Of a stretch of DNA of 12,660 nt, positions 1,252 to 12,087 are shown piece after piece. Below the pieces are notes generated by a model. It did no database searches, was not told the DNA's origin, and was given only the letters and a program-made list of their open reading frames with translations. Origin of the DNA: Planctomycetota bacterium (GTDB lineage: Bacteria; Planctomycetota; Planctomycetia; Gemmatales; Gemmataceae); the NCBI GenBank assembly GCA_021809185.1, contig JAKBAI010000168.1, positions 1-12,660 of the forward strand. The letters run 5' to 3'. Position numbers and translations under genes: made by a program. Numbering within the stretch: position 1 is the stretch's first letter; each line of letters begins with the position of its first letter.

Positions 1252-2178
1252 ATGATGAAAGATTCCGCAATTCCCAGCACTTCAGTTATCTCTCAAAATA
1301 TTATTCAGGATTCAACGAGTACTGAAGAACTTCAAGACCAATTGGCCTCCTTATTAAGTGAACAGCAAGAAAGTGAACAAGAACTAGAATTAGAAGATCG
1401 TAAAACTGGCAAACTTAAAGAAAGCTGGCAACAAATACGCAACATTCCTTGCCACCGTTGTCAAAAATTGTATTGTGGTCATGAAGCCCTTTTAAGTATC
1501 GCTCTAGGGTTCAAGAATACCCCCTATTGCTTAATTTGTCTGGCCAGTGGGCTAAATCGTTCGGTAAGCGAATTGATGGAACAATTAAGTTTATATATCC
1601 AGAGACACACCTGTTTTCGCACCGTCTGGATGATCGCCTCGAGAGAAGAACAGATCGAGGATATGCTTATCCCCATTTGTATTCAATCGCTTCTGGCCAC
1701 TGAAAAGAGTAAGATAGTCATGAATACTAGCAATAATAGCTTACGACAGTCTAACGACCAATCTGATTCCCGTCGATATCCGAGCACAAATCAATCAGAG
1801 TCAAATTCGCAATTTTGCCAAAGTCAGCAATCTCAAAGTGAACAATCTCAAAGTCAGCAATCGGAGAATTTGACACAATCTTGTTCAAGTAACCGTGGCA
1901 ATCCGATGAAAACTACTCCAGACTCAGATTTAAAAGAGCCAGCAGATCAGCTTACAACTGCCATCCAATCGGAAGTTTTTGATGCAGGAAACATGGGTTG
2001 TGGAAATCTCGTTTTGGCATTACGATTAAAATTAAAATCGTTACCCCCCGGAACTCTTTTAACGGTAATCGCTCAAGACCCCGCTGCGCCACAAGATCTG
2101 CCTGCATGGTGCCGTATGACTGGTCACCGTTTACTCGAAACTCAGCACCCTAATTATCTTATTCAACGAAAGGATTAA
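1252..2178 (+). CDS. Two-domain protein: N-terminal Cys/His-rich domain (C-x2-C-x5-C-x-H ... C-x2-C), Q/S/N-rich linker, C-terminal TusA-like sulfur-carrier domain with atypical C-G-N active-site motif
   Basis: 308-aa ORF. The C-terminal ...FDAGNMGCGNLVLALRLKLKSLPPGTLLTVIAQDPAAPQDLPAWCRMTGHRLLETQHPNYLIQRKD aligns to E. coli TusA (LRCPEPVMMVRKTV...[26 protein letters not shown]...YLIRKG), with the active Cys conserved but CPxP replaced by CGN. The N-terminal CHRCQKLYCGHE...YCLICL cluster is probably a metal-binding module. The gene ends 6 bp before the next gene, suggesting an operon. Confidence 0.8.
   Translation: MMKDSAIPSTSVISQNIIQDSTSTEELQDQLASLLSEQQESEQELELEDRKTGKLKESWQQIRNIPCHRCQKLYCGHEALLSIALGFKNTPYCLICLASGLNRSVSELMEQLSLYIQRHTCFRTVWMIASREEQIEDMLIPICIQSLLATEKSKIVMNTSNNSLRQSNDQSDSRRYPSTNQSESNSQFCQSQQSQSEQSQSQQSENLTQSCSSNRGNPMKTTPDSDLKEPADQLTTAIQSEVFDAGNMGCGNLVLALRLKLKSLPPGTLLTVIAQDPAAPQDLPAWCRMTGHRLLETQHPNYLIQRKD
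1819..1863 (+). repeat. In-frame 15-bp tandem repeat x3 (CAAAGTCAGCAATCT / CAAAGTGAACAATCT / CAAAGTCAGCAATCG) encoding QSQQS-QSEQS-QSQQS within the linker of the 1252..2178 CDS
   Basis: Read directly from the sequence. The first and third units differ by 1 nt. The unit length is a multiple of 3, so copy-number change would keep the frame. Confidence 0.85.
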
Positions 2179-2184
2179 CTTGTT

Positions 2185-2547
2185 ATGTCGAATAAATTTT
2201 GTTTGGTTTTAACTCATGCCAAGGACAATGTCGATCGAGCCACAGTCGCCTTTGTGGTTGCCAATGCAGCATTAGCATCGGACAAAGAGACCGTAGTCTT
2301 TTTAACCGTGGAGGGGGTCCATCTAAGCCAAGTTGGGTACGCGAACGATCTTCACGAACCCGGTTTTGCACCCCTCAAAGATTTAATTGCGCAGTTCACC
2401 GGCTCTGGCGGGCAGATCTGGGTCTGTTCCCCATGCTTCAAAAAACGCAAGTTAGAAGAAAATAAACTGGTTCAGGGGGCCATTCTAGTTGGCGGTGCCA
2501 AACTGGTAGAATTTCTATCGGATGGTGCCCCCTGTGTCTCCTATTGA
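2185..2547 (+). CDS. DsrE/DsrF-like (YchN-fold) sulfur-relay family protein
   Basis: 120 aa. The pattern is typical of the family. The N-terminus KFCLVLTHAKDN...ATVAFVVANAALASDKETVVFLTVEGVHL resembles the DsrE start (LIIVTSGPYG...AL..AL..GHEV.VFF..DGV). There is a conserved Cys in ...QIWVCSPC... (DsrE 'VCS' active-site region). The C-terminus LVQGAILVGGAKLVEFLSDGAPCVSY matches the family end. The gene starts 6 bp after the previous stop. Confidence 0.8.
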   Translation: MSNKFCLVLTHAKDNVDRATVAFVVANAALASDKETVVFLTVEGVHLSQVGYANDLHEPGFAPLKDLIAQFTGSGGQIWVCSPCFKKRKLEENKLVQGAILVGGAKLVEFLSDGAPCVSY

Positions 2548-2763
2548 CATTTAAACTCGAACGAGGATCGGCAAATTCAAACCGATTTTGGTTATTGTGT
2601 TGTTTATTCTCGTTTTTTCCTCGTCTTATTCTCCGTGCAAATGGAATGAGACGATCAAAATTCGTTCCTTATTCTTTCAGCTTATTCAACAAGTGGATTC
2701 TCTGCAAAGGTCGATTCTTTGTTTTGATTAGTCAGGAAAAATCCGAATTAGAAGGGTAATATC

Positions 2764-4434
2764 ATGAACGATTCAACCCATCCTCCAGAGACAGCAAAAA
2801 CTGAATTACCTGCAAAGGAGAATCAGCAATCTTCAGCTCTTCCATGGCAAGCGGACAGTGTTTTTCATGGTGGGGATATGGACTGCGGCAACGGATTGCT
2901 GTTAATGATTCGTAAACATCTCGATACATTGAGCGCAGGTCAGTTTTTAGAAATAACTTCAACGGAATCATCGGTCGAAGTCGATCTACCTGCCTGGTGT
3001 CAACTAACGAACAACGAGTTAATTGCGAAAAGGATATTACAAACTGCCGAAGCAACACCAAAAACAACCTGTTATCTCATTCGCAAAGGGGAGAAAGCAC
3101 GAAAGTTGACCTCATCTCCACCTAAATCTGAAATCTCAAGCGGTATATCTAGTGGAACATCCACTGGAACATTCACTACAGAAGAGTTAATCTCCCGTAA
3201 CGAAGAATCTCGAGAGACATACTCTGAAAAATCATCTAAAAGAAGTAGTTCAGGAAAAATCGTTAGGTCAACAGAATATCCTTGGTCAGAGTTACCTCTT
3301 CTACCCGTGATGGGGATCGGTTCTTGGCCGAGACCCCCTTGGCTCCTCACAGCTTTAGAAGAATATGTTTCCAATCGCATGCCCGATCCGGTCTTCCAAG
3401 CTTTGGCCAATCACGCTGTCCAAGAAGCGGTGCGAATGCAAACCGATGCAGGGGTTGACATCATTACCGATGGGGAACAGCGCCGGGATAGCTATGCAAG
3501 TTTTGTCGGCTTACGACTGCAGGGTTGCCAGCTAATTCCATTAGCGGATCTAGCCATTTATTCTCAACACCCAAACGAATTTACGCAAAGCCTGAAGGCA
3601 CTAGATGTTCCTCGAGATCAGCGGCACCCTGCGGTTATTCATCAACTTCAGCGAACTCGCTCGTTAGCTGTCGATGAATATCGCTTTGCTCGCCAACAAA
3701 CCGATCTACCTATTAAAATAGCACTGCCTGGCCCCTATCTTTTACAACGTACTCTCTGGCTCGATTGTATCCCGAATCAGATCTACCAAAACCGAGAGAC
3801 TCTTGCGGATGATCTTGTCAAAATTTTACGAGAAGAGATTGCCGATTTACTCGCGGCGGGGGTTGCCCTTATCCAATTCGATGAACCGGTCTTGACCGAG
3901 GTCGTCTATGGGAAAAAATCAGCGGATCGTTCTTTTATGTGCGGTGCTCTTGCCGAGGCCAGTTCCCCTGCCGAAGAATTGGCTAGAGCAGAAAATTTAT
4001 TGCTCCGAGTGATTGAAGGCTTCCCTCCCCAGCGCCTTGGCTTGCATATCTGCCGCGGTAACTGGTCGCGCGATGAATCGGTAGCCTTGACTGGAAATTA
4101 CCAACCCCTTTTACCACTTTTAACGAAACTCCCTTTTGGCACTCTCTTTTTAGAACTTTGTACACCGAGAGCAGGCGAAATGGCGATTCTAAGCGATCTC
4201 CCTAGCTACCAAAAAATTGGTATCGGTATCGTCAATCCGAAACAGATACGGGTTGAAACCGTTGATGAAATCAAACAAAAAATCGATCGAGCAATCGCCA
4301 CATTTGGCATCGATCGCATTCTGCTCACTCCGGATTGTGGCTTTGCCACTTTTGCCTTGCATCCCCTCTCAAGTAGCCAAATCGCTCAACAGAAACTCGC
4401 CAACATAGTCCGAGCTGCAACACAATACCGCTGA
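2764..4434 (+). CDS. Fusion protein: N-terminal TusA-like domain (C-G-N motif), S/T-rich linker, C-terminal cobalamin-independent methionine synthase (MetE) catalytic-domain-like Zn-dependent thiol methyltransferase domain
   Basis: 556 aa. Residues ~35-110, GGDMDCGNGLLLMIRKHL...VEVDLPAWCQLTNNELIAKRI...TTCYLIRKG, align to TusA including the C-terminal YLIRKG. A low-complexity S/T linker spans ~3106-3300. From ~3301 the sequence shows MetE C-terminal-domain hallmarks. MGIGSWPRP matches the TIGSFPRT motif. DIITDGEQRRDSYASFVG matches DVLVHGEFERNDMVEYFG. GLHICRGN matches the H-x-C zinc ligands (E. coli His641/Cys643). LLTPDCGFAT matches VNPDCGLKTR (Cys726). Confidence 0.85.
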   Translation: MNDSTHPPETAKTELPAKENQQSSALPWQADSVFHGGDMDCGNGLLLMIRKHLDTLSAGQFLEITSTESSVEVDLPAWCQLTNNELIAKRILQTAEATPKTTCYLIRKGEKARKLTSSPPKSEISSGISSGTSTGTFTTEELISRNEESRETYSEKSSKRSSSGKIVRSTEYPWSELPLLPVMGIGSWPRPPWLLTALEEYVSNRMPDPVFQALANHAVQEAVRMQTDAGVDIITDGEQRRDSYASFVGLRLQGCQLIPLADLAIYSQHPNEFTQSLKALDVPRDQRHPAVIHQLQRTRSLAVDEYRFARQQTDLPIKIALPGPYLLQRTLWLDCIPNQIYQNRETLADDLVKILREEIADLLAAGVALIQFDEPVLTEVVYGKKSADRSFMCGALAEASSPAEELARAENLLLRVIEGFPPQRLGLHICRGNWSRDESVALTGNYQPLLPLLTKLPFGTLFLELCTPRAGEMAILSDLPSYQKIGIGIVNPKQIRVETVDEIKQKIDRAIATFGIDRILLTPDCGFATFALHPLSSSQIAQQKLANIVRAATQYR

Positions 4435-5635: not shown

Positions 5636-8600
5636 ATGCACCGAGAAATATCTCACACCGATTTACTAGGACCACGTAAAAGCAACACCTCTTTATACGT
5701 GTTTTCATTATTTGTTGGATTTTTACTCGCTCGTGATCTACTCCCCAAATTGCAAGAAGGGTTTCGCTATTTCGGGATCGAAACGGGTCAAAGTACGCGA
5801 TTCCTGTTTGATTATCGATATGCTCTCCTGGCCGCTATCGTTGGTGGAGCACGAGTATTATTTTACTCACTGGAAAAATTGTTGGAAGGCAAGCTCGTCG
5901 CCGATCTAGCGATAGCGATTGCTTGTCTAGCCGCTATTGCCATGAAAGAGCCGCTGGTAGCTAGCGAAGTTGTTTTTATTGGCTTATTGGGCGAATGCCT
6001 GGAAGCTTACACCATGCAGCGGGGCCAGAGTGGAATTGCTCAATTAATTGAACTATTTCCACTCCGGACATGGGTTTTACGCAACGGTAGCGAAGTTCGC
6101 ATCTTGACTACCGAGCTTGTGCGCGGGGATGAAGTGGTTGTCAAACCGGGTGGAAAAATCCCGGTGGATGGCACGATTATGAGCGGTTCGAGCTGCATCG
6201 ATTTTAGCGCTTTGACAGGAGAGAGTATTCCCCAAGATAAATCGGTAGGGGATAAAGTATTTGCCGGTGGAATCAACCAGCAAGGCCAAATAACAATTCG
6301 AGCGGAAGCTGTTTACCAACAGACGGTTGCTGGCAAAGTAATCGATTATACCGTACAAGCCTTACAAGATAAAACGAAACAGGAACGAATTGTAGATCGC
6401 TATGCCCGCTATTTCTTGCCGGTGGTGCTTCTCATTGCTCTATTAACTCTGCTGGGCAATCTTTTCGCCTATATGGGACCGTTTCGACCAGCTAGCCAAC
6501 GGCTGAACTTCGTCCCTGCTCTGTATCTGGGTCTCTACCCGACGCTATCGGTATTAGTGGTCGCGTGCCCCTGTGCGCTGATTTTGGCAACCCCTGCTGC
6601 AATGGTTGCTGCCTTGGGTCGACTTGCTGGAACAGGTATCCTCATAAAAGGAGTATCGGTTCTGGAGAAACTCACGCAAGTGAACGCGATCGCTTTTGAT
6701 AAAACAGGTACACTCACCGAAGGGAAATTGGCTCTCTCATCTATTTTACCCGAACCGGGCTATCAAGAACTCGCTATCTTGCAAATCATGAGTAGTATCG
6801 AACAGAGCAGCGACCATCCTATTGCGCAATGCTTCCAGCGTGAACGGGAATCTCGCCAGCTACCCCTGCTGGCTATGTCGAATTATCAAACCGTTCCTGG
6901 CCAAGGAATGAGTGCCGAGTATAATCAGGAGTTCTACTGGGCAGGTAGCTCACGCTGGCTTGCCACGCAAGGCATTATTTTAAGTGAAGAACAAACGCAA
7001 ACTCTGAACCGATTGCATCAGCAAAGCGAAACCGTTATCTTTCTAGGTAAAAACAAAGATGTGATCGGCTTTTTTGGCGTTAAAGATACCATTCGCGCGG
7101 ATGCCGAACATACACTTATCGAATTGAGAAAATCGGGAATTGAAAAAATCCTTATTCTGAGTGGCGATCAACAAAATATCGTTGAACATGTTGCGGAAAC
7201 CCTTGCCATCAAAGAGTATTATGGAAATTGTCTTCCCCTCGAAAAGGCCGAGAAAATAAAAGAATTTAGCACGGCAGCGATCGTAAACCCCGCTTTGGCT
7301 AGCAACGATACTACTCATCGTTCAAATCCAAGCGACGATTCTATCGCCTTTTCTATCGGCTATCCTATCAGCTCAACAACGAAGGGGAGCACACCCCCCT
7401 CCTATCGGTTTGCCTTTGTTGGAGATGGTATCAACGACGCTCCAGCTCTGGTTGCTGCCGAAGTTGGTATTGCCGTGGGAAGTGGTAGCGACCTCGCGCG
7501 GCATGCCGGCTCTATTGTTTTATTAGGGTCTCCTTTATCTTCGTTACCGTTGTTGTTTCGCTTGTCCCGCGAAACAATGCGAATCATCCAGCAAAATCTG
7601 ATCTTGTTTGCCTTTGGCGCGAACATCCTTGGAATTATTATCACGGCCTGGCTTTGGCCGCTCTTATCCCCTTCCTCCTTATGGTATGAACAGTCCCCCC
7701 TTGCTGCGGCCATATATCATCAATTTGGGTCGTTAGCAGTCTTATTGAATTCGATGCGGCTCCTATTTTTTGAAAACACCAAAGTAGCGAAAAGCTGGCA
7801 AAAGATTCAACAGCTATTCGAATCTCTACAAAAAAGCACCTTCCTTCCGTTTGATCTCGATCAGTTTTTACACACCCTTTTTGATTGGCGCAAACCGATC
7901 ATGACCGCCTGCGCGGGTTTAGCACTATTAGCATACTGCGGCACGGGCATTGTTATCATCCAAGCTAATGAAATTGGCATTGTGCAAACATTAGGACGTT
8001 GGTCGCGTGATCTTCCCCCAGGATGGCATTGGTGCTGGCCGATAGGGATCGATCAAATTACCAAACTAAAACCAGAGACCGAACAGATTGTCGAAATCGG
8101 GTTTCGCACTTTACCTAGTTCGAATCTAGACCAATCCCCTTTGCAGATTGATAGCCGGGTCCGAAATCAGCTAAGGGTGCGTGGACTAATCTGGGCCAGC
8201 GCCCATGGGGACAATATCCAGCGCTTAACCGATGAAGCGATCATGATAACCGGAGATGGCGACCTGATCGAGTTACTAGCCACTTTACGCTATACAATCC
8301 GCGACCCCCACCAATATCTATTCCAAGCCAACGATATACCGCAGATCGTGCAACAGATTACGGAGACGGTTTTCCGTGAACAGCTCGCGGGTCGATCGTT
8401 TCTGGATTTATTGACGACTCAACGGCTGGATCTCCAACGCCGAGCAGAATCGATTACCCAATTTCGCTGTGATACTATAATCCCTGGCGGACTCGGTATC
8501 ACGATTAAGGGTATCAGTATAGGAGACTTGCACCCACCGCAGGAGGTTGTCCCTGCCTATCATGAAGTGGCTCGCGCGATTCAACTAAGAGATCAACAGG

Positions 8601-9076
8601 TTAACAATGCAAAAGCGGACGCCATTCGTAAAGTTCGCTTGGCTCAAGAATCATCTTTACAAATGATCCGTACCGCCGAAGCTAAAAGCCATGAAAAGAT
8701 TGCCCAAGCTCAGGCCGATCGGGATAACTTTCTAGCTTGGCATCTCTATCGGTCCGAATTAACTTCAGAAGAAGAGAATCGGCTCAAAGCGTTAATGGCA
8801 AAATGGCAGCAAGATGGGTTCAACATTCAGGAAATACAAAGCCGACGAATTCAGGAACGATTATTGATGCTCCAGACCAAACAAAATCTCTCCGAATCGC
8901 AATTAATGTGGACTATGCTCACTTCCGTATTAAAAAATCGTGATAAAATTATCATCGATGCCGATAACCTACCGGGGAAAAGACAACTATTTTTGGTTGA
9001 TCCGAATTCGCTTCGCCCGAATCTCCTTTTGCCACCGGATTCCCTCAAACAGGCTATGCCGGAACGTAAAGATTAG
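5636..9076 (+). CDS. Fusion: P1B-type heavy-metal-translocating P-type ATPase (no N-terminal metal-binding domain) fused to a C-terminal HflK-like SPFH/band-7 domain with its own TM anchor and coiled-coil tail
   Basis: Single 1146-aa ORF. ATPase motifs: TGES actuator motif (ALTGESIP), TM6 [10 protein letters not shown] (Cys at 6566-6574), DKTGTLT (6698-), SxHP (SSDHPIAQ) and [10 protein letters not shown] (7421-). The ATPase part ends ~[10 protein letters not shown] (7742-7771). After a ~45-aa linker comes the TM helix [21 protein letters not shown] (7898-). From there the sequence aligns to HflK. [27 protein letters not shown] matches [59 protein letters not shown] matches the LLTADENIVDVDFAVQYRIVDPEKYLF region. 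[21 protein letters not shown] matches PPEEVKAAFDDVIKARED. A coiled-coil tail follows. Confidence 0.85.
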   Translation: [1146 protein letters not shown]

Positions 9077-9241: not shown

Positions 9242-10363
9242 TTACTTTAATTTTTTCTTTGGTGTTGCTTCGTGAGCGTTCAGGTTATTTAGGACTTCTT
9301 TCAATTTAGCCTGAGCTGTGCTATTTTCTGGTAACGGTTTTTCCTGAATCGCTGGTAAAAGTTTCTCCCAGATCGCATTCAGTTGACCTTGCATATTATT
9401 GGTTTTTGCGGTGATGGCGATAACAGCATCTAATTCGGGAAGAACAATACAGAATTGCCCATCCTTTCCATCGCCGCGAAAAGCATGATGACGACAACGC
9501 CAGAATTGATAGCAGTAGCCCTGATCCCAATCGCTATTAGGATTACTTCCATTCGATGTTTGTTTGGTGGTGGCCATGGAGACCCAAGATTCCGGAATGA
9601 GTTGTTTTCCTTGCCATTTCCCTTTTTGGAGATATAGTTGACCAAACTTAGCGATATCTTCGGTACGAATAAATAAGCCATAGCCACCGATACTAATTCC
9701 TTGGGGGCTGGCATCCCAGACCGGATCGTCGATACGCAGAGGGTCGAAAAGTCGTGGTTTCAGATAATCTAAAACAGTATTCCCTGTTGTTTTTTGCACA
9801 ATAGCGGAAAGCATGTAGGTAGCTGGGGTATTGTACATAAAGTGTGTGCCGGGTTTAAAAGGAACGGGGTGAGCGAGGAACGACTTTACCCAAGGAACAT
9901 CTTTCTGAAATCGCACTTCGCTGGTATGACCAGCAGACATGCAGAGCAGATCGCGGACACGCATATTGCGAAGATTGGCCGATGGGTTCTCTGGAGCCAT
10001 ATCGGGAAAGAACTTCAATACTTCATCATCCAGGGAAAATTTCCCTTCATGAATTGCTAACCCAACAGCGGTGGATGTAAAACTTTTGCTCAAAGAGAAC
10101 ATAACGTGCTTCGTTTCGGGGGTTTGTGGTTTCCACCAACCTTCGGCAACCACTTTCCCATGGCGAACGAGCATAAAACTATGCATGGTATTGATTTTCT
10201 TGTCTATCGTTTCGATAAATTCGATTATTCCCTGAGAAGATATTCCCTCCGCTTCTGGAGTGGAACGCGGTAAGGGAAAGGCCTTTTTATCCTCGCTGTA
10301 TAACGAGAATGGAGAGAAAAGACAGATAAAAGCAATTAGATAATTGGAACTTAAAAAACGCAT
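9242..10363 (-). CDS. Secreted beta-lactamase-family serine hydrolase (class C beta-lactamase / esterase-like)
   Basis: 373 aa. There is an N-terminal signal peptide (MRFLSSNYLIAFICLFSPFSLYS). The S-x-x-K active-site motif appears in FSLSKSFTSTAVGLAI, ~25 aa after a Gly/Trp-rich region typical of the family (LVRHGKVVAEGWW). Length and layout are consistent with the AmpC/EstB-like fold. A GAGG lies 9 nt upstream of the ATG. Confidence 0.75.
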   Translation of the reverse strand: MRFLSSNYLIAFICLFSPFSLYSEDKKAFPLPRSTPEAEGISSQGIIEFIETIDKKINTMHSFMLVRHGKVVAEGWWKPQTPETKHVMFSLSKSFTSTAVGLAIHEGKFSLDDEVLKFFPDMAPENPSANLRNMRVRDLLCMSAGHTSEVRFQKDVPWVKSFLAHPVPFKPGTHFMYNTPATYMLSAIVQKTTGNTVLDYLKPRLFDPLRIDDPVWDASPQGISIGGYGLFIRTEDIAKFGQLYLQKGKWQGKQLIPESWVSMATTKQTSNGSNPNSDWDQGYCYQFWRCRHHAFRGDGKDGQFCIVLPELDAVIAITAKTNNMQGQLNAIWEKLLPAIQEKPLPENSTAQAKLKEVLNNLNAHEATPKKKLK

Positions 10364-10569: not shown

Positions 10570-12087
10570 TTATTTCGAAACAGCTTTCAGTTCTCGCGTC
10601 AAATCGATCATTTTGGGCGGAGCGTTCCCTCCCACATCAATTTCAAACTTATAGGGTAAACGGTTCACCTCGCGCGATACGGTTTTGATTGGTCCATACT
10701 GGATCCCTTTGCCATCCCATCGGGATCTTTTTTGAGGATTGGCAATATTCGATTCTTGATAACGATAGGTTACCACCAGTTTAGAATTATCTGGGAGTTT
10801 ATTGTTGTTACAGCTTACGGTAATCTTATTTTTGCCGGGAATTAGATAGGGCAAAGCGTTTCGATTGTGTTCGACCTGGGCTTTTAATTGGAGATTCTGA
10901 ATATTCCCTTGAAATTCCAGTTTGAAAGAGAGATGATATTTTTGTTTTGCCAGTTTAGAAATATCTTCCCAACGGCAGAGTTGCCACGATTTACCTCGAT
11001 TGGTAGAAACCGCAATAACATCATCTTTGCGATTGGAATCGGTCGATATATTTACAGATACGAAGGGATACGCAGAAGGGAGTTGCAAAATCAAAACCCC
11101 TTTGCCATTATTTTTGTTAGGATCCTGAACCGTTAGGCCATGTTGAGTAACCATGGCATTTTGAAATTCCAGATAATCGAAGGGCTGATCGGGTTGAAAA
11201 TGGACTTGATAAAGAAAGGTGCCATTCGACCAGTTTCGCGGGCCGTAATGTTCCAAACGTGGTCCGAGAACTTTGTCATGGATAAAATCTTTGATTCCAC
11301 AAGAATGTTGTGGAGGTTTTCCAGAAACAGCAAACCCAAAAGGATCCCCTTTCCAGGCTAAGGTCAATGAACTATGGAGGGGTAAATGAACCAATGGTTG
11401 GTAATCTTGGTCACGCCAGGTAACGGAGGCCCAGCCTTTGGCATTTCCTTCAATATGCCGATGTTGACAGCCTTGGATAACATCCTGAGGCGCATCTCCA
11501 CAACATAAATTTTGCCGAGCGGCTCGATTTTCTTTCATAGCATCCAGCACAATCGAAGGATCTTTGGCAATCTCTTCTTGAGAAACAATATGCGTTTTAT
11601 CTTTCGACCAATAATAGCACTTGAGAAAGACATCAAAATAGTGCCAACGATTATCGTATTTCACTTCGATCGTGGTGTGTCCGGGCCAACCCACATAGCG
11701 GCATTCCCAACCCGCGGTTTCAAAAAGTGCTTTGAGGACCGTATGCTGACCTCCGCAAAGCCCCCACCCATACACATTAATTATCTTTAACGGCCCAACC
11801 GATTGCGGAGCCGATTCCACCGGATAAGCCCAATGAAAGATCGTGTTATGAAGATATTCGTAAATCGCAATTGCTTTTTCATCATTGGTTTTCGCCTGCG
11901 CTCGTTGGATTGCTTGTTGAACAATCGTTTCCAGCGATGAAGAATCGATGGTTTGATCGGTTGTTATTTTCACCCCTTTGACATCTGCCCTTAGCTGATG
12001 GCACATAAATAAATCAGAATGGATTATCATCAATAAAGACCATGTCCAAACTGAGAAATATGTTCGTAAACGGTGCATGGTTGTCAT
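10570..12087 (-). CDS. Secreted transglutaminase-like (Cys-His-Asp papain-fold) domain protein with beta-rich C-terminal region
   Basis: 505 aa. The core GLCGGQHTVLKALFETAGWECRYVGWPGHTTIEVKYDNRWHYFD matches the transglutaminase-like pattern G.C...A.L...LR..GIPAR.V.G....HAW.EV.....W..FD (Cys, then His, then Asp). The signal-peptide-like N-terminus is MHRLRTYFSVWTWSLLMIIHS. The more likely start is the second ATG at 12078, which has a GAGG 9 nt upstream. The first ATG at 12087 abuts the GAGG with no spacer. Confidence 0.75.
   Translation of the reverse strand: MTTMHRLRTYFSVWTWSLLMIIHSDLFMCHQLRADVKGVKITTDQTIDSSSLETIVQQAIQRAQAKTNDEKAIAIYEYLHNTIFHWAYPVESAPQSVGPLKIINVYGWGLCGGQHTVLKALFETAGWECRYVGWPGHTTIEVKYDNRWHYFDVFLKCYYWSKDKTHIVSQEEIAKDPSIVLDAMKENRAARQNLCCGDAPQDVIQGCQHRHIEGNAKGWASVTWRDQDYQPLVHLPLHSSLTLAWKGDPFGFAVSGKPPQHSCGIKDFIHDKVLGPRLEHYGPRNWSNGTFLYQVHFQPDQPFDYLEFQNAMVTQHGLTVQDPNKNNGKGVLILQLPSAYPFVSVNISTDSNRKDDVIAVSTNRGKSWQLCRWEDISKLAKQKYHLSFKLEFQGNIQNLQLKAQVEHNRNALPYLIPGKNKITVSCNNNKLPDNSKLVVTYRYQESNIANPQKRSRWDGKGIQYGPIKTVSREVNRLPYKFEIDVGGNAPPKMIDLTRELKAVSK

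Follow-up and report, generated by a model that had tools for sequence, protein, structure and literature searches.

Both the synthesis of methionine and the trafficking of persulfides have been studied in depth. In the CysO–CysM and Wolinella HcyS–MetY systems, a small carrier brings sulfur to an amino-acid-forming step and free sulfide is avoided. Thermotoga maritima MetE stacks the pterin against Trp539, holds it through Glu583 and binds the first glutamate with Arg496 (PMC539065). The 'core' enzymes MesA to MesD were argued to be methionine synthases by their zinc and homocysteine residues (Price et al., PMC7857596). Of these, MesD has been found experimentally to have no need of methyl-folate. 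We found no description of TusA or DsrE coupled to a MetE-type enzyme in the full-text literature, a coverage that leaves out subscription-only papers; the original prediction for the locus described here, made from its letters alone, also knew of none. The locus is a three-gene cassette at positions 1252 to 4434 of a 12,660-nucleotide stretch of Planctomycetota DNA (contig JAKBAI010000168.1; hereafter the window). It encodes a TusA-like protein, a DsrE-family protein and a TusA domain fused to a MetE-type catalytic barrel. The same module recurs across phyla.

As predicted, the three open reading frames (ORFs) are closely linked and co-directional. The ORF coordinates leave gaps of 6 bp and 216 bp, and genes called independently on the parent contig (GCA_027459385.1, DAIDIK010000011.1, 211 kb) match the three ORFs, with nothing further between them or on the other strand. 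The features of the cassette, all on the + strand except the unstranded spacer, are as follows.

1252..2178, +, gene 1: 308 aa; Cys-rich helical N-domain, Q/S/E-rich insert, C-terminal TusA domain
~1414-1732, +, Cys-rich helical domain of gene 1: residues ~55-160; C67, C70, C75, H77, C93, C96, C121 and C143 conserved
~1745-1955, +, low-complexity insert of gene 1: residues ~165-235; Q/S/E-rich
1969-2166, +, TusA domain of gene 1: residues 240-305; carrier Cys250 (nt 1999-2001), motif NMGCGNLV
2185..2547, +, gene 2: 120-aa DsrE-family protein
2425-2427, +, active-site Cys81 of gene 2: motif VCSPCFKxR
2548..2763, no strand, spacer between the DsrE and fusion genes: 216 bp
2764..4434, +, gene 3: 556-aa TusA::MetE-catalytic-barrel fusion
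2854..3093, +, fused TusA-type domain of gene 3: residues 31-110; Cys41 (nt 2884-2886), motif GGDMDCGNGLLL
3097..3270, +, linker of the fusion: residues 112-169; disordered, S/T/E-rich (predicted local distance difference test, pLDDT, <50)
3289..4434 including the stop codon, +, single MetE-type (beta/alpha)8 barrel: residues 176-556
3322, 3475 and 3880, +, homocysteine triad: S187, E238 and D373
4045, 4051, 4153 and 4336, +, zinc ligands: H428, C430, E464 and C525
3622, 3757 and 3898, +, pterin/folate-contact equivalents: R287, W332 and E379
3940-3942, +, codon of C393 in loop RSFMCGAL; with C255 and C335, one of three clade-specific cysteines

The fusion is genuine and no assembly artefact, because the 556-aa protein is identical in three independent assemblies (an NCBI metagenome-assembled genome (MAG), ENA, and Logan from a separate run) and at least 588 species-level genomes encode this fused ORF. 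Mis-assembly or a frameshift, which had been named as something that could undo the case, is ruled out by these assemblies together with recurrence of the fused ORF in 78 of 80 related loci. The 216-bp spacer has no Rfam match, no called gene and no significant terminator, and promoter and terminator sites in it are not more numerous than in shuffled sequence. In most other genomes the gap from DsrE to the fusion is ~10-100 bp, or the genes overlap.

The original prediction had proposed searching genomes for this architecture and gene neighbourhood. Our species-level scan, with one genome per species, confirmed at least 588 loci with the fused cassette. They are spread over groups that include Planctomycetota, Binatia, Burkholderiales, Alphaproteobacteria (Hyphomicrobiales), Rokubacteriota, Acidobacteriota, Terriglobia, Dehalococcoidia, Melainabacteria and Myxococcota. 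A few of the MAG taxon labels are probably binning errors; the carriers include an isolate, Bordetella genomosp. 12. Carrier genomes come from soil and freshwater, mostly from aerobic hosts. A search at the protein level yielded over 7,000 matches, the best 120 of which are ~500-550 aa long, ~50% identical and mostly annotated with TusA plus Meth_synt_2 in precomputed Pfam. Synteny was counted in the 65 loci whose upstream sequence reached 1.5 kb or more. Of these, 62 have DsrE on the same strand upstream of the fusion, 54 have a stand-alone TusA there and 52 have both. Binatia cassettes have no stand-alone TusA. The three genes are a real conserved module, recurring across phyla more than chance would allow. 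Public annotation calls the fusion 'methionine synthase' or 'TusA family protein'. The family is large, is mis-annotated or under-annotated everywhere and is no rarity of this genome.

Profile searches with all three proteins recovered the families foreseen for them: TusA, DsrE and Meth_synt_2. For the C-terminal part of gene 3, Meth_synt_2 (PF01717) matches with an E-value of 5.8e-28 (98.6 bits, cutoff 21). The nearest PDB entry by sequence is MesD (3RPD; E-value 4.8e-23, or 2.4e-34 with a profile), and MetE proteins are also among the nearest. In Foldseek, T. maritima MetE and MesD lead (E-value ~6e-22; TM-score 0.8 on 3RPD) and the more distant matches are UroD and MtaA-type methyltransferases. 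The worry that this domain might not be MetE-like is not borne out. The model for two-barrel MetE (equivalog TIGR01371) scores 85.7 bits against a cutoff of 929.95, and the fusion has no N-terminal Meth_synt_1 barrel; residues 1-170 are TusA and linker. In NCBIfam, no curated family covers the fusion protein.

The residues of the active site are kept. The predicted IGSxPR and DGExxR motifs are present as IGSWPRP (S187) and DGEQRR (E238), and a third motif is H428-I-C430. In the family profile, S433, E484, D599, E665 and C726 of E. coli MetE align with S187, E238, D373, E464 and C525. H428 and C430 align with the H-I-C of MesD; their E. coli equivalents are H641 and C643. Each of the four zinc ligands and each member of the homocysteine triad is found in 78 of 78 fused proteins, taken from 78 loci. 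The zinc set of the original prediction, His-x-Cys with a later Cys, is correct as far as it goes but omitted the fourth ligand, E464; loss of the ligands on alignment, which it had raised as a danger, is not seen. These zinc and homocysteine residues are those on which the case for MesA to MesD was made (PMC7857596). The conserved residues predict, with good support, a domain built to hold on its zinc an alpha-amino acid shaped like homocysteine. By motif spacing via E. coli MetE, Trp539, Glu583 and Arg496 of T. maritima correspond to W332, E379 and R287. W332 is kept in 77/78 fused proteins, E379 in 76/78 (the other two have Asp) and R287 in 75/78. In MesD, the alignment shows a gap, Val and Ser instead. 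The domain may still use a methyl-pterin donor.

Upstream of the barrel, the carriers are recognisable. Gene 1 matches TusA (PF01206; E-value 1.5e-10, 41.2 bits, cutoff 28.6) over residues 244-298. The description of its product as TusA-like stands for this domain, but the protein is more than TusA. Its N-domain has the pattern CxxCxxxxCGHE...CxxC...C...C, with seven conserved Cys and one His, and is confidently folded in AlphaFold (pLDDT >90). This domain has no Pfam, NCBIfam or PDB counterpart and probably binds metal or Fe-S. It is an accessory, present in 16/81 cassettes, mostly of Planctomycetota. The Q/S/E-rich insert lengthens the gene 1 product to 308 aa, homologues being ~200 aa. Gene 2 was rightly called DsrE/DsrF-like. 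It matches DsrE (PF02635; E-value 4.4e-15, 56.3 bits, cutoff 22.7) and its C81 aligns with Cys78 of E. coli TusD. The VCSPCF motif is kept at 90% or more in 70 loci. Cassette DsrE proteins are ~120 aa throughout and 70-76% identical across distant phyla (4494 homologues), against ~50% for the enzyme partner. This higher conservation suggests multiple constrained interaction surfaces.

The fused TusA domain gives a weaker Pfam call. Residues 46-89 of gene 3 match with an E-value of 1.1e-5 (25.7 bits), just under the cutoff of 28.6. We take this call as real because a 32-sequence family profile of the fusion matches the E. coli TusA structure 3LVJ (E-value 1.3e-5), Cys19 of E. coli TusA aligns with C41, and residues 32-107 fold in the AlphaFold model as a compact alpha/beta domain, with helix 1 beginning at C41. 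Cys19 also aligns with C250 of gene 1, and precomputed Pfam assigns PF01206 to most fusion homologues. Fusion of a TusA domain through an S/T linker to a MetE-type domain, the central claim of the original prediction, is upheld. C41 is retained in 77/78 fused proteins. In both TusA modules and at all loci, a Cys-Gly motif replaces the classical CPxP: D-C-G-N/S-G (DCGxG) in the fusion and G-C-G-D/E/N-L (GCGxL) in the stand-alone protein. Judged by family matches, the carriers belong to the TusA and DsrE families proper, with a variant motif. The persulfide-carrying cysteines persist in DsrE and in each TusA module, where they are predicted to act as carriers. Linker length across the family is 25-77 aa (median 40). 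In the model, the 58-residue disordered linker argues that Cys41 could reach the zinc site.

Of particular interest are the three extra cysteines C255, C335 and C393, which are invariant in the fused family (n=78). The FDEP strand is followed by the loop RSFMCGAL, which contains C393. Residues 390-397 are the sole low-confidence stretch of the barrel (pLDDT <50), so the loop is probably mobile and part of the active site. When the catalytic domain was used by itself in an exhaustive search, the closest unfused relatives were 32-44% identical. In alphaproteobacterial and other loci, genes for TusA, DsrE and a TusA::OsmC-like protein are followed by an unfused MetE-like gene. The TusA part of the OsmC fusion shares the DGGDLDCGSGLLL motif with the fused domain of the window, and the partner enzyme has an RTFMC loop. 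The loop Cys is also kept in relatives at 43-44% identity, where the order is rhodanese, MetE-like, OsmC-like (two independent contigs). Three relatives do not have the loop Cys (32-38% identity; named 'cobalamin-independent methionine synthase II', the nearest unfused proteins of this name being 365-395 aa). No sulfurtransferase neighbour was found at these three. C393 is retained in all three architectures that have a sulfurtransferase, namely TusA/DsrE, TusA::OsmC and rhodanese. Therefore, the C393 clade is tied to a sulfane-sulfur donor, and the carrier is exchangeable, TusA/DsrE or rhodanese. This pairing, in a comparison with only three relatives lacking C393, is the strongest evidence for a functional link between carrier and enzyme.

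The OsmC-like subfamily was located in four related loci.

L089 8386-9114; L088 8380-9108; L098 2372-2899; L099 1584-2075: OsmC-like proteins, fused to TusA or stand-alone

In those alongside the MetE-like enzyme, the canonical peroxidase Cys pair is not kept in full, and no OsmC-like domain occurs in the 80 fused loci. In one fused representative, P0170 (503 aa, 41% identity), the C393 loop and the His-x-Cys motif have both been lost; this protein may be degenerate or a pseudo-enzyme.

Genomic context connects the cassette with methionine genes in one lineage. All eight Binatia loci place metY (Cys_Met_Meta_PP, E-value 1e-129) and metX, an Abhydrolase_1 alpha/beta hydrolase of homoserine O-acetyltransferase size, next to the cassette in divergent orientation. 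A Pfam call identifies metW in locus L085; in seven loci, a 217-aa ORF cluster at the same position may likewise be metW. Together, metY, metX and metW cover the steps from homoserine to homocysteine. A serine hydroxymethyltransferase gene (glyA; parent contig, L081 5305-6582) lies ~2 kb upstream of window position 1252, separated from the cassette by one opposite-strand gene lacking an assigned function. Its proximity is a weak hint at a link to one-carbon supply.

Proteobacterial cassettes also contain a transporter.

L023 5452-7967; L089 5103-7636: complete PhnD/PhnE/PhnC-like ATP-binding cassette (ABC) importer, inside proteobacterial cassettes

The Burkholderiales order is DsrE', TusA, DsrE, PhnD-like binding protein, PhnE, PhnC, TusA::MetE. 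In the alphaproteobacterial locus L089 it is glutaredoxin, PhnD-like binding protein, ATPase, permease, TusA, DsrE, TusA::OsmC, MetE-like; genes for a rhodanese and an Rrf2 regulator lie in the vicinity. PhnE and PhnC pass the NCBIfam equivalog cutoffs for a phosphonate transporter. The binding proteins pass the cutoff of the phosphate/phosphite/phosphonate subfamily, weakly match a 'putative selenate' binding-protein model, and have signal peptides and a conserved STSG oxyanion motif. Those of Burkholderiales and Alphaproteobacteria are only 24% identical and the Planctomycete neighbour is of another family (Rv1680-like), which rules out a single orthologous importer. The TusA-like YeeD ranks near the top of the structural matches to the TusA modules; by analogy with YeeE/YeeD, the importer may bind a tetrahedral oxyanion, thiosulfate for example. 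In a census of the flanks (284 ORFs), a universal fourth partner gene was ruled out; neighbours are lineage-specific. Neither the 25 most frequent families (of 69 and 103) for these ORFs nor the gene-by-gene Pfam tables of seven cassette loci include DsrC, DsrAB, Hdr-like proteins, LbpA, TusE, MnmA or DUF1852 (MesX).

Our preferred interpretation, with a probability of roughly 0.45, is that the fusion methylates homocysteine as a single-barrel enzyme of the MetE type, with a persulfide relay feeding it, and serves homocysteine or methionine formation. Sulfane sulfur would pass from DsrE to TusA and on to the tethered TusA domain, with Cys41 on a flexible arm of 25-77 residues. In Proteobacteria, the sulfur could perhaps come from an oxyanion, such as thiosulfate, via the co-encoded PhnCDE-like importer. 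Relay sulfur would become the thiol of homocysteine; for example, a carrier persulfide could react with O-acyl-homoserine on MetY/MetZ to give a carrier-S-S-homocysteine adduct. The arm would then dock the adduct in the barrel, C393 would resolve the disulfide and the homocysteine thiolate would move to zinc. Methylation of the thiolate by a methyl-pterin donor would yield methionine. In a simpler version, with the relay and methylation steps only, the relay would supply homocysteine synthesis elsewhere and the fusion would serve co-localisation. The fixed points of the scheme are the fold, zinc site, amino-acid pocket, carrier cysteines, synteny, C393/sulfurtransferase correlation and Binatia methionine context; we infer the transfer steps, the methyl donor and the sulfur source. 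The original prediction had left three roles open: methylation of a carrier-bound persulfide or thiol, sulfur delivery for homocysteine or methionine formation, and demethylation of a methylated thiol. The evidence is not neutral among them. An invariant alpha-amino-acid triad and retained equivalents of the MetE pterin contacts speak for a methyl group passing to bound homocysteine, with sulfur delivered at an earlier step, more than for methylation of a carrier-bound persulfide.

Several observations weigh against this interpretation. NCBIfam matches of the fusion are exclusively to methionine synthases, and every one is under its cutoff; the best, archaeal NF003317/PRK04326, has an E-value of 2e-49 and 168.6 bits against the 406 required. 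The N-terminal MetE barrel, with its Lys104/Arg15/Arg18-type folate contacts, is missing and the DMV motif of MetE has become S-Y-A. Hence, use of methyl-folate is not assured. Rfam scans found no riboswitch for S-adenosylmethionine or cobalamin ahead of the cassette, either in the window (E-value <= 1) or in 16 related loci (gathering threshold). The flanks beyond the cassette are heterogeneous across the 284 ORFs, and metXY adjacency is restricted to one lineage. Bordetella hosts presumably own MetH or MetE already; therefore the cassette may be specialised and not housekeeping. Furthermore, a plain methionine synthase has no obvious need for a relay whose DsrE (70-76% identity) is better conserved than the enzyme (~50%).

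The carrier sulfane sulfur might instead be a direct substrate of the MetE-fold zinc enzyme, handed to C393 and then joined to an amino-acid skeleton or methylated in the barrel. We regard this as possible but doubtful. If true, it would be an unrecognised and widespread route from persulfide or thiosulfate sulfur to homocysteine or methionine without free sulfide, and a new reaction type for the MetE/UroD superfamily. Joining to an amino-acid skeleton would make the protein a pyridoxal phosphate-independent homocysteine synthase, or another enzyme that forms C-S bonds with no methyl transfer. The pocket would hold O-acetyl-, O-succinyl- or O-phospho-homoserine, a zinc-activated persulfide on C393 or Cys41 would attack C-gamma, and the resulting protein-S-S-homocysteine would be resolved to free homocysteine. 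The triad would fit a homoserine ester equally well, the invariant loop Cys adjoins the active site and each architecture of the C393 clade has a sulfane-sulfur donor. MetE-fold enzymes do accept other electrophiles, as in epoxyalkane:coenzyme M transferase, and the makers of O-acetylhomoserine, metX and metW, are adjacent in Binatia. Yet so is MetY, the usual sulfhydrylase, which would make such an enzyme redundant there. The chemistry has no known precedent in the family and leaves the near-invariant W332, E379 and R287 unexplained. We consider a homocysteine synthase of this kind unlikely. Those same pterin-contact residues can be accommodated if the enzyme is a methyltransferase for persulfide or sulfane sulfur. 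Here, a persulfide on TusA or C393, or cysteine persulfide, would be methylated on zinc to a methyl-disulfide and released as methanethiol, which could enter methionine via MetY. Persulfides are good nucleophiles, the carrier is physically fused to a methyltransferase-type domain and the MetY/MetX adjacency in Binatia fits methanethiol-dependent methionine synthesis. However, a triad for a free amino acid, kept in 78/78, is needless for a protein-bound persulfide; only cysteine persulfide, an isostere of homocysteine, escapes this objection. Methanethiol also has no known physiological need in these aerobic heterotrophs, and we judge this activity distinctly unlikely.

Other explanations break the flow of sulfur from relay to enzyme, or change what flows. 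The catalytic domain appears self-sufficient. It could be an ordinary single-barrel methionine synthase whose TusA, DsrE and OsmC partners protect or regulate it and feed it no substrate, by reversible persulfidation of C393 or the zinc cysteines against oxidation or by sensing sulfane-sulfur supply. E. coli MetE is notoriously sensitive to oxidation. T. maritima MetE takes an oxidised disulfide form (PMC539065). The hosts here are mostly aerobes, and OsmC-fold domains, from a family that includes thiol peroxidases, occur in two architectures. Those OsmC-like domains are without the canonical Cys pair, however, and a three-protein relay with an embedded ABC importer seems too elaborate for the purpose. 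Better conservation of DsrE than of the enzyme is also awkward for a protective role, which is, in our view, quite unlikely. Finally, the pocket could act on an imported look-alike of homocysteine: a phosphonate or phosphinate amino-acid analogue, thiophosphate or a selenium species. The transporter-family calls of PhnC and PhnE and the weak 'putative selenate' match of the binding proteins point this way, and TusA-like and DsrE-like proteins have been implicated in selenium handling. Set against them, the importer is limited to proteobacterial versions and its binding proteins diverge to 24% identity between lineages. No selenium-specific family (YedF, SelD) was matched in NCBIfam scans and no phosphonate catabolic genes occur in the flanks examined. 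An alternative substrate of this sort is highly improbable.

Should the relay feed the enzyme, as in our preferred interpretation, aerobes would have a way from sulfane or thiosulfate sulfur to methionine that avoids free sulfide. The fusion would then join the 'core' methionine synthases as a fifth family, served by accessory proteins of a new kind, and genome-scale metabolic reconstructions for poorly cultured phyla would be corrected. The module is widespread and strongly conserved, and the hypothesis can be tested with three small soluble proteins and their Cys-to-Ser mutants.

Three genes elsewhere in the window also deserve mention. A 1146-aa heavy-metal P1B-type ATPase is encoded at 5636-9076 on the + strand (TIGR01525, 501 bits; CPC motif). 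It has a C-terminal SPFH/Band-7 HflK-like domain (PF01145, residues 774-996), an unusual fusion. A beta-lactamase-fold serine hydrolase is encoded at 9242-10363 on the - strand; its top NCBIfam match is '3-succinylated cholic acid synthase' (E-value 5.7e-93, 312 bits, cutoff 800). A transglutaminase-core protein is encoded at 10570-12087 on the - strand. Another such protein (L089 10602-11765) lies directly 3' of the MetE-like gene in alphaproteobacterial loci, and its occurrence in both places is probably coincidence.

Comparison with known systems places the fusion near the methionine synthases. With MetE (E. coli b3829; T. maritima 1T7L/1XPG), it shares the catalytic (beta/alpha)8 barrel, the His-x-Cys...Glu...Cys zinc ligands, the Ser/Glu/Asp triad and, by motif spacing, likely equivalents of Trp539, Glu583 and the folate-tail Arg496. 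Unlike MetE, it has TusA and a disordered linker in place of the N-terminal barrel (Meth_synt_1), does not keep DMV, and is only ~18-24% identical. It also has the invariant Cys255, Cys335 and Cys393 and an obligatory sulfurtransferase link. The core synthases MesA to MesD (PMC7857596) likewise have a single barrel without the folate-binding N-domain, the zinc and homocysteine residues and a dependence on accessory proteins. The accessories differ, being corrinoid proteins or MesX for MesA to MesD and TusA, DsrE or rhodanese for the fusion. MesD, also found in aerobes, provides the best PDB sequence match. MesD itself is recognised by similarity to ACIAD3523/3RPD, a MesX (DUF1852) partner and a Tyr226 insertion. 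Identity of the fusion to 3RPD is ~25%, under the ~30% that separates Mes families, and no DUF1852 neighbour was found in the flanks checked. MesD membership is ruled out on these grounds; in addition, equivalents of the pterin contacts are kept in the fusion and the region of the Tyr226 insertion aligns poorly. The archaeal split MetE catalytic subunit (NF003317/PRK04326) gives the best NCBIfam match, again with a single barrel and predicted methyl-pterin use, and the nearest unfused relatives (32-38%) bear the split-MetE name 'cobalamin-independent methionine synthase II family'. The score falls far below that model's cutoff, however, no Meth_synt_1 partner gene is seen nearby and the relatives so named are without the C393 loop. 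The fusion lies outside canonical MetE and MesD. It is homologous to MetE-type synthases, is predicted to work like them and is closest in spirit to the 'core' synthases.

On the sulfur side, the cassette resembles the TusA/TusBCD, DsrEFH/DsrC and archaeal DsrE3A–TusA relays in its carrier cysteines (Cys19 and Cys78 equivalents) and its adjacent TusA and DsrE genes. It differs in having C-G instead of CPxP and a single 120-aa DsrE with VCSPCF, and no dsr, hdr or sox genes are among the neighbourhood families examined. Whereas the known relays end at DsrC, MnmA/TusE, the molybdenum cofactor (Moco) pathway or sHdr, the terminal acceptor proposed here is a MetE-fold enzyme. YeeE/YeeD (TsuA/TsuB; 8J4C/8K1R) pairs a sulfur-oxyanion transporter with a cytoplasmic TusA-like protein, and proteobacterial cassettes embed an oxyanion-type importer. 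That importer is PhnCDE-like and of the ABC type instead of YeeE, and DsrE and the MetE-like enzyme are additions. CysO and HcyS are ubiquitin-like thiocarboxylate carriers activated by adenylation. In contrast, the carriers of the cassette are predicted Cys-persulfide proteins, one of them fused to a methyltransferase-type enzyme. Every part of the cassette comes from a known family; what appears new is the coupling of TusA and DsrE to a MetE-type enzyme.

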